The notes under the pieces are model-generated. The model was not told where the DNA came from and did not search any database. It saw nothing but the letters and a program-made list of their open reading frames with translations. A stretch of DNA of 64,000 bases from Escherichia coli (GTDB taxonomy: Bacteria > Pseudomonadota > Gammaproteobacteria > Enterobacterales > Enterobacteriaceae), in NCBI RefSeq assembly GCF_036507355.1, contig NZ_AP027877.1. One strand, written 5' to 3'. Below, in pieces: positions 19,111 to 19,126 of this stretch; positions within the stretch are counted from its first letter, which is position 1; every line of letters begins with the position of its first letter. Both the position numbers and the translations under genes were made by a program.

Positions 19111-19126
19111 ATGCAATCGGTTACGC
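19111..19126 (+). promoter_or_regulatory. putative PurR operator in guaBA promoter
   Basis: ATGCAATCGGTTACGC resembles the PUR-box consensus (ACGCAAACGTTTGCGT) and overlaps the -35 region. Confidence 0.5.

Follow-up and report, generated by a model that had tools for sequence, protein, structure and literature searches.

The closest described systems are the PurR operators of Escherichia coli K-12, whose occupancy was determined by ChIP-chip in the study of Cho et al. 2011 (PMC3159470). Motifs given there in Table 1 include ACGCACACGTTTGCGT for purC, TCGCAAACGTTTGCTT for purMN and GCGTAACCGATTGCAT for guaBA, the last of these belonging to one of 15 PurR regions counted as previously characterised. 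Log2 enrichment in the presence of adenine was 2.08 for both purC and purMN (a saturated signal in the case of purMN), and in its absence 1.52 and 0.98, respectively (PMC3159470). Epitope-tagged PurR was cross-linked at guaBA only with adenine, and the log2 value of 0.84 obtained there was the lowest of 35 regions; the yfgO/yfgC region gave a value of 1.18, likewise with adenine only. PUR boxes have been described in general as overlapping the promoter between -35 and -10 and thereby blocking initiation. In the case of guaB, the core promoter was reported to overlap a "putative" PurR site and PurR to down-regulate the gene (Husnain and Thomas 2008, PMC2885671), in addition to control by CRP (-117.5), FIS (-11, +8 and +29), DnaA and an UP element (PMC2885671), and PurR was named as the guaBA repressor in a 2025 paper (PMC12323610). 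A footprint or gel shift at the guaB PurR site was not found in the literature examined, which did not extend to the primary reports of 1990.

The DNA considered here, referred to as the window, is a stretch of 64,000 nucleotides that was recognised from its open reading frames and the RefSeq annotation of one strain as a segment of the E. coli chromosome in the order opposite to K-12 numbering. A 701-bp piece around the guaB site (window 18800-19500) matched the xseA-guaB region in 5425 of 5426 complete E. coli genomes, with 100% identity in four strains, and a strain that was 100% identical over this query served as annotation donor. The left part of the window contains, in order, pbpC-ndk-rlmN-rodZ-ispG-hisS-yfgM-bamB-der and then xseA on the minus strand. 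The guaBA operon follows on the plus strand (19180-22292, with guaB at 19180-20646 and guaA at 20715-22292; open reading frames and RefSeq annotation), with ppx and ppk 3' of it in map order. Farther on are purM (31793-32830, GTG start) and purN (31155-31793), which together occupy 31155-32830 on the minus strand, then upp, uraA, hda, arsC, bepA and perM, then focB and the hyf genes, and finally bamC followed by purC (56463-57176, plus strand).

Two insertions were noted in this map. An island of about 5 kb (12818-17573) between der/yfgJ and xseA is missing from the annotation strain, and coverage of the island in a single piece did not exceed 73% in any complete E. coli genome. Its products include a SinI-family protein, an inverse autotransporter (IAT_beta; sinH in the annotation of other strains) and a protein of 460 aa whose domains are of the invasin-type adhesion and Ig-like kinds. 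An IS1 copy lies between yfgH and yfgG (about 23470-24240) and makes up about 780 bp that the reference strain lacks, and its 167-aa open reading frame was identified as IS1 transposase (Pfam PF03400, E = 2e-78).

The 16-mers quoted in the first-pass annotation were all present in the window, i.e., ATGCAATCGGTTACGC at 19111-19126 (guaB), AGCAAACGTTTGCGAG at 32895-32910 (purMN) and ACGCAAACGTGTGCGT at 56294-56309 (purC). The purMN string was thus correct but its coordinates were 1 nt off, since the palindrome centred on CG occupies 32894-32909 (AAGCAAACGTTTGCGA). The boxes of purC, purM and guaB all have the form of a PUR box, i.e., a 16-bp imperfect palindrome, aNGCAAnCGnTTnCnT, with a central CpG and half-site cores of GCAA and TT(G)C. 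The placing of three transcription units under the same repressor, PurR, was borne out by comparison with the ChIP-chip study, as the motifs of Cho et al. for purC, purMN and guaBA match the window strings base for base as their reverse complements (PMC3159470). We therefore regard it as highly probable that these three motifs are operators of guaBA, purMN and purC for PurR, the LacI-family purine repressor. Sequence, scores, position and conservation were computed in the present work, and PurR occupancy, its dependence on adenine and purR-dependent repression were taken from the literature.

When no more than 3 mismatches were allowed, a search of the window for the consensus ACGCAAACGTTTGCGT found the purC box (1 mismatch), the purM box (2) and a match internal to hda (3), i.e., 3 matches compared with 0.66 expected. 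This search was given up in favour of leave-out position weight matrices because it is blind to the guaB site, which has 5 mismatches. The matrix was symmetrised and built from the ChIP motifs of Cho et al. 2011 (PMC3159470; 28 motifs, 35 regions) after removal of the four that fall in the window, i.e., from 24 sites, and all 64,000 positions were scanned with it. The matrix and ChIP evidence are partly dependent, as the former was built from the ChIP motif table, albeit with the four window sites excluded.

The highest scores of all 64,000 positions were those of purC (56294, 19.8 bits, rank 1) and purM (32894, 18.4 bits, rank 2), for which 0.008 and 0.02 matches, respectively, were expected per window from independent and identically distributed bases, and the description of both boxes as near-consensus was upheld by these ranks and by the counts of mismatches. 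Next in order were a match internal to uraA (34250, 14.5 bits, rank 3, 0.28 expected), guaB (19111, 13.5 bits, rank 4, 0.5 expected), perM (38198, 13.0 bits, rank 5, 0.7 expected) and the match internal to hda (35785, 12.5 bits, rank 6, 0.9 expected). The purC and purM boxes are therefore far above chance from sequence alone and are unambiguous. The guaB box was the weakest of the three, as had been said of it at first reading, and the earlier ranking of certainty was correct. Across purC, purMN and guaBA, the order of matrix scores was the same as that of ChIP enrichment. Matches at 34250 (uraA), 35785 (hda) and 24537 (end of yfgG) were taken as chance rather than as operators because they are in coding DNA and missing from the ChIP list.

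The scan had been proposed as a check on the guaB site, and its outcome was divided. Leave-out scores of purC, purM and guaB all passed the cut-off of Cho et al. (P<1e-4), but the guaB score had no significance across the window as a whole. Thus, 13.5 bits corresponds to p = 8e-6 per position, and dinucleotide shuffles contained 1.07 such matches per window, with at least 1 in 66% of shuffles. With a matrix made from 12 "classical" pur/pyr/gly operators, the guaB box scored 10.8 bits, for which 1.4-2.5 matches were expected per window. The guaB site is thus not established by its letters alone, given an expectation of 0.5-2.5 such matches per window, and a 13-bit site of this kind is not callable in 64 kb by a matrix alone. 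It rises above chance only if the search space is narrowed to the 160-bp xseA-guaB promoter region, within which the expectation for such a site was about 0.001-0.003. These figures bear on the possibility that the guaB motif is a chance resemblance without PurR function, only the purM and purC boxes being real and the purine response of guaBA arising by other routes. Such a reading would fit the 0.5-2.5 matches expected per 64 kb and the occurrence of equal-scoring matches in coding DNA (uraA and hda), as well as the deviation from the consensus at 5 positions, a ChIP enrichment below that of all other regions among the 35 and the word "putative" applied to the site by specialists (PMC2885671). 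Evidence of other kinds, described below for the guaB promoter and its relatives, favoured PurR function at this site.

The best match in the window, the purC box (ACGCAAACGTGTGCGT, 56294-56309, plus strand), abuts a putative extended -10 sequence, TGaTATGAT (56285-56293, plus strand), that was read from the sequence and is preceded by the bamC terminator found in a terminator scan (56257-56284). If this -10 assignment holds, the purC box would span approximately -6 to +10, i.e., the start site. The purC ATG is preceded by a leader of about 160 nt that includes a REP element, and the leader segment was present in a median of 6 copies per genome. The purC box 30-mer was identical in only 3625 of 5426 E. 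coli genomes. Polymorphism of the operator itself was ruled out as the cause by alignment of divergent strains, 4 of which had the identical 16-mer, and the drop was attributed to SNPs that lie outside the unchanged 16-mer, 2 and 7 nt downstream, i.e., common E. coli polymorphisms beside the box at 56311 (G/T) and 56316 (G/A). K-12 (XL1-Blue) has T at 56311. Protein occupancy of the purC site, as seen by IPOD-HR, vanishes in minimal medium and also when purR is deleted (PMC8282354).

The purMN box, which reads TCGCAAACGTTTGCTT on the purM coding strand (32894-32909, minus strand; 18.4 bits, Cho 2011 motif), is separated by 7 nt from a putative extended -10 that contains TAGAAT (TGtTAGAAT, 32881-32889, minus strand; read from the sequence). 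Given this putative -10, the box would cover the -35 position (TCGCAA, 32909-32904) and most of the spacer. The purM box 30-mer was identical in 5418 of 5426 E. coli genomes. The promoters were located by visual inspection, that of guaB alone being tied to published numbering, and a simple sigma-70 consensus scan detected none of the guaB, purM and purC promoters because of their poor -35 hexamers. Promoter occlusion at purC and purM, for which the -10 assignments made by eye are the basis, would thus be the expected consequence of PurR binding, and the promoter positions so assigned are consistent with the published generalisation on -35 and -10.

The guaBA box (ATGCAATCGGTTACGC, 19111-19126, no strand given; 13.5 bits, Cho 2011 motif, conserved) has an intact central CG and left GCAA core and a right core of TTAC, so that its half-sites consist of a good one, ATGCAATC, and a poor one, GCGTAACC. 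The -10 hexamer of guaB, TATAAT (19131-19136, plus strand), was invariant in a 34-species alignment, and the -35 hexamer, TAGATG (19108-19113, plus strand), is poor. The -10 was not claimed as an extended -10, as TG abuts TATAAT without a spacer base. An A/T-rich block at about 19084-19105 was matched to the UP element, published as lying at -59 to -38 (PMC2885671), and alignment of this block with the published numbering would place +1 at G19143 and, consequently, the PUR box at about -32 to -17. The box takes in the final 3 bp of the -35 hexamer together with almost all of the spacer, in agreement with the first-pass description of a weaker site overlapping the guaB -35 region. A perfect DnaA box, TTATCCACA, was also noted within the guaB coding sequence at 19386-19394, about 200 nt past the start.

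Conservation of the guaB box was examined in one genome per species, with loci located by a codon-degenerate pattern for the conserved GuaB N-terminus. This yielded 120 guaB loci, nearly all gammaproteobacterial, and the 300 nt upstream of each start were scanned with the leave-out matrix. A PUR-like box was present in 26 of 33 species of Enterobacterales, where it lay 66-81 nt upstream of the ATG, in 15 of 17 species of Vibrionales (13-17 bits) and in 1 of 7 species of Pasteurellales. A box of at least 12 bits was found in none of 5 species of Aeromonadales, in 1 of 15 of the Alteromonadales type and in none of 38 other Gammaproteobacteria. Most Enterobacteriaceae had the identical ATGCAATCGGTTACGC, and likeness to the consensus was greater in distant genera, i.e., AGGCAACCGATTACGT in Photorhabdus (18.3 bits), AGGCAACCGATTACGC in Yersinia, Brenneria and Pectobacterium (15.7 bits) and AGGCAACCGTTTTCGG in Hafnia (15.4 bits). 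The Vibrionales box, AGCCAA[A/G]CGATTGCGY, was just 5' of the -10 in the species inspected. Within E. coli, the guaB box 30-mer was invariant in 5420 of 5426 genomes, compared with 3325 of 5426 for an adjacent intergenic control 30-mer.

These observations weigh heavily against chance resemblance at guaB. Thus, the motif coincides with a PurR ChIP peak that depends on adenine, its promoter position is fixed across Enterobacterales and Vibrionales with variation of the shape expected from the motif and higher scores in distant genera, and it shows no variation in 5420 of 5426 E. coli genomes while neighbouring DNA varies. We consider chance resemblance very improbable, and the PurR operator remains the preferred interpretation of the guaB motif.

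Variation within the box also bears on whether the constraint is due to PurR. In aligned Enterobacterales promoters, the variable columns of the box were positions 2, 7 and 10, where the PurR motif has little information, and substitutions kept GCAA..CG..TT.C. Column conservation correlated best with PurR information content at offset 19111 (r = 0.56, the best of 80 offsets; Spearman p = 0.16). The box was lost in seven lineages (Rosenbergiella twice, Mangrovibacter, Budvicia, Arsenophonus and two Pantoea symbionts), all of which retain the UP element, -10, discriminator and leader, so that promoter activity as such does not depend on the box. Operators of LacI-family repressors resemble one another, and the block could in principle be constrained by a factor other than PurR, either RNA polymerase through its contacts with the -35 and spacer or a LacI-family paralogue with a similar CG-centred palindrome. 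This mutual resemblance of operators is in keeping with such a factor, as are the position of the block, which overlaps the -35 hexamer and the spacer in a strongly conserved promoter, and the moderate correlation with the PurR profile (r = 0.56; Spearman p = 0.16). Retention of the UP element, -10 and discriminator by seven lineages without the box argues otherwise, as do the confinement of substitutions to the PurR-tolerated positions 2, 7 and 10 with GCAA..CG..TT.C kept and the cross-linking of epitope-tagged PurR itself at this site, with adenine only. Constraint by another factor thus appears hardly more probable than chance resemblance, and PurR is preferred to both. Promoter position, footprint and within-species invariance lend independent support to a PurR site at guaB, which is convincing once they are added to the score, and this context together with the published ChIP data settles the guaB site as a real, weak PurR operator.

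Differences at the centre of the guaB box (19117-19120) were noted between genera. Enterobacteriaceae have AATCGGTT at this place, and Yersinia, Pectobacterium, Brenneria and Photorhabdus have AACCGATT (loci L005, L015, L046 and L085 compared), and the half-site variants AATC and AACC are on swapped sides between the AATCGGTT and AACCGATT boxes. In Pantoea and Erwinia, the centre of the box is symmetric (AATCGATT).

A fourth region, absent from the first-pass annotation and missed by a scan for the consensus by eye, contains the PurR-type motif CCGGAAGCGATTGCCT (38198-38213, plus strand; 13.0 bits, rank 5), which corresponds to the published yfgO/yfgC ChIP peak. The motif is within the annotated perM (yfgO) coding sequence, 46 nt after the ATG, and the divergent bepA (yfgC) adjoins; its 30-mer was identical in 5389 of 5426 E. 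coli genomes. In sitting within a reading frame the perM motif is like the intragenic, roadblock-type PUR boxes of purB and purR, but it differs from these in its low score of 13 bits and in having no reported regulatory effect on perM or bepA. Sites like that of perM were grouped by Cho et al. with bound regions that showed no change in expression (PMC3159470).

The presence of three or four sites in one window was not remarkable, as in 29% of simulations some 64-kb window had at least 4 of 35 randomly placed regions (scan-statistic P = 0.29), and clustering at this scale was rejected. At the 100-kb scale, 6 PurR regions were present, including glyA and purL just outside the window, which is mildly unusual (P = 0.02).

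Regulation of the three transcription units can be pictured as follows. When purines are plentiful, hypoxanthine or guanine would load the PurR dimer, which would then bind the 16-bp imperfect palindrome aNGCAAnCGnTTnCnT, occlude the promoter that the palindrome overlaps and lower initiation. At purMN, PurR would sit on the -35 hexamer position and the spacer, and at purC just 3' of the putative -10 and across the start site, each of these being a near-consensus operator of high occupancy. At guaBA, PurR would sit on the last 3 bp of the -35 and on the spacer (-32 to -17), where binding is predicted to be weak and conditional, and partial, corepressor-dependent repression would be added to the effects of CRP, FIS, DnaA, the UP element and growth-rate control.

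A possible hairpin was noted in the guaB leader. The 5' end of the guaB mRNA, GCAAUAUU, 17 nt downstream of the PUR box, can pair with AAUAUUGC, a sequence ending 2-3 nt short of the AUG. The arms are at 19143-19151 (GCAAUAUUU, from G19143) and 19169-19177 (AGAUAUUGC) within a hairpin region of 19142-19178, and the 3' arm is located between the Shine-Dalgarno sequence and the AUG. The minimum free energy was -11 kcal/mol (z about -1.9 to -2.1), or -14.3 kcal/mol (z = -3.05) with G19142 included, and the predicted stability for transcripts starting at 19142, 19143, 19144 and 19145 (A) was -14.3, -11.0, -7.2 and -5.2 kcal/mol, respectively.

The hairpin was kept in 77 species of six orders, i.e., Enterobacterales, Vibrionales, Pasteurellales, Orbales, Aeromonadales and the Alteromonadales type (loci L002-L121), and was absent from the more distant Gammaproteobacteria among the guaB loci. 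In the 77 species, the 5' arm started exactly 6 nt after the -10 hexamer and the 3' arm ended 0-3 nt before the start codon, with a loop of 8 to 131 nt between the arms. Among 39 distinct sequences, pairing was seen in 91.5% of cells, compared with 35-63% when the partner was slid. Exchanges at alignment columns 7 and 22 were U-A/U-G/C-G (30/8/1), those at another pair were U-G/U-A/C-G (25/8/4), and the outermost pair was G-C or C-G. The covariation score was exceeded in 1 of 500 shuffles. The evidence for the hairpin, which is mostly conservation with a few compensations, is suggestive. Rfam 15 covariance models gave no match at E <= 1 on either strand of window 18900-19400, and no relevant paper on a hairpin in the guaB leader or on start-site switching came up in a literature search. 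Many Vibrio guaB leaders (L027, L037, L041, L042, L105 and L110) have an extra conserved internal stem, e.g., CTCATTATGCGAAACGATGAG, placed within the long loop between the two conserved arms.

In pyrC and pyrD, masking of the ribosome binding site by a 5' hairpin depends on a nucleotide-sensitive choice of start site. The guaB leader is like these in that its 5' end can pair near the ribosome site with a predicted stability that depends on the start, a likeness of structure only. By analogy, transcripts starting with G might form the full hairpin and mask the ribosome site, and those starting with A might form a weak one; the guaB hairpin would then be a pyrC-like cis-regulatory RNA that ties guaBA translation or mRNA stability to the initiating nucleotide, a proposal that we put forward as speculative and rather unlikely. 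A simpler alternative is that the hairpin is a 5'-terminal stem-loop that protects the mRNA. Another is that the arms are conserved as FIS sites, in favour of which the sites determined in vitro at +8 and +29 coincide with the two arms in E. coli (PMC2885671). If true, the proposed start-site hairpin would explain mechanistically how the gua operon comes under a "dual control by adenine and guanine nucleotides" that is independent of PurR. We know of no accepted mechanism for PurR-independent purine control of guaBA, and this hairpin between the guaB 5' end and start codon is worth an experiment if it has not already been described.

Compared with known systems, the three sites of the window are identical in sequence to catalogued operators of the E. 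coli pur regulon (PMC3159470, which cites He et al. 1990 and Meng et al. 1990). The three operators are thus already catalogued and represent ordinary textbook regulation with nothing new, and their re-identification from raw sequence matters little in itself. The features shared with catalogued PUR boxes are the 16-bp CG-centred palindrome, the overlap with a promoter and, in the literature, occupancy that depends on corepressor (adenine to hypoxanthine). The present strain differs from K-12 in the sinH island, the IS1 copy and the flanking SNP beside the purC box, with the PurR operators unchanged.
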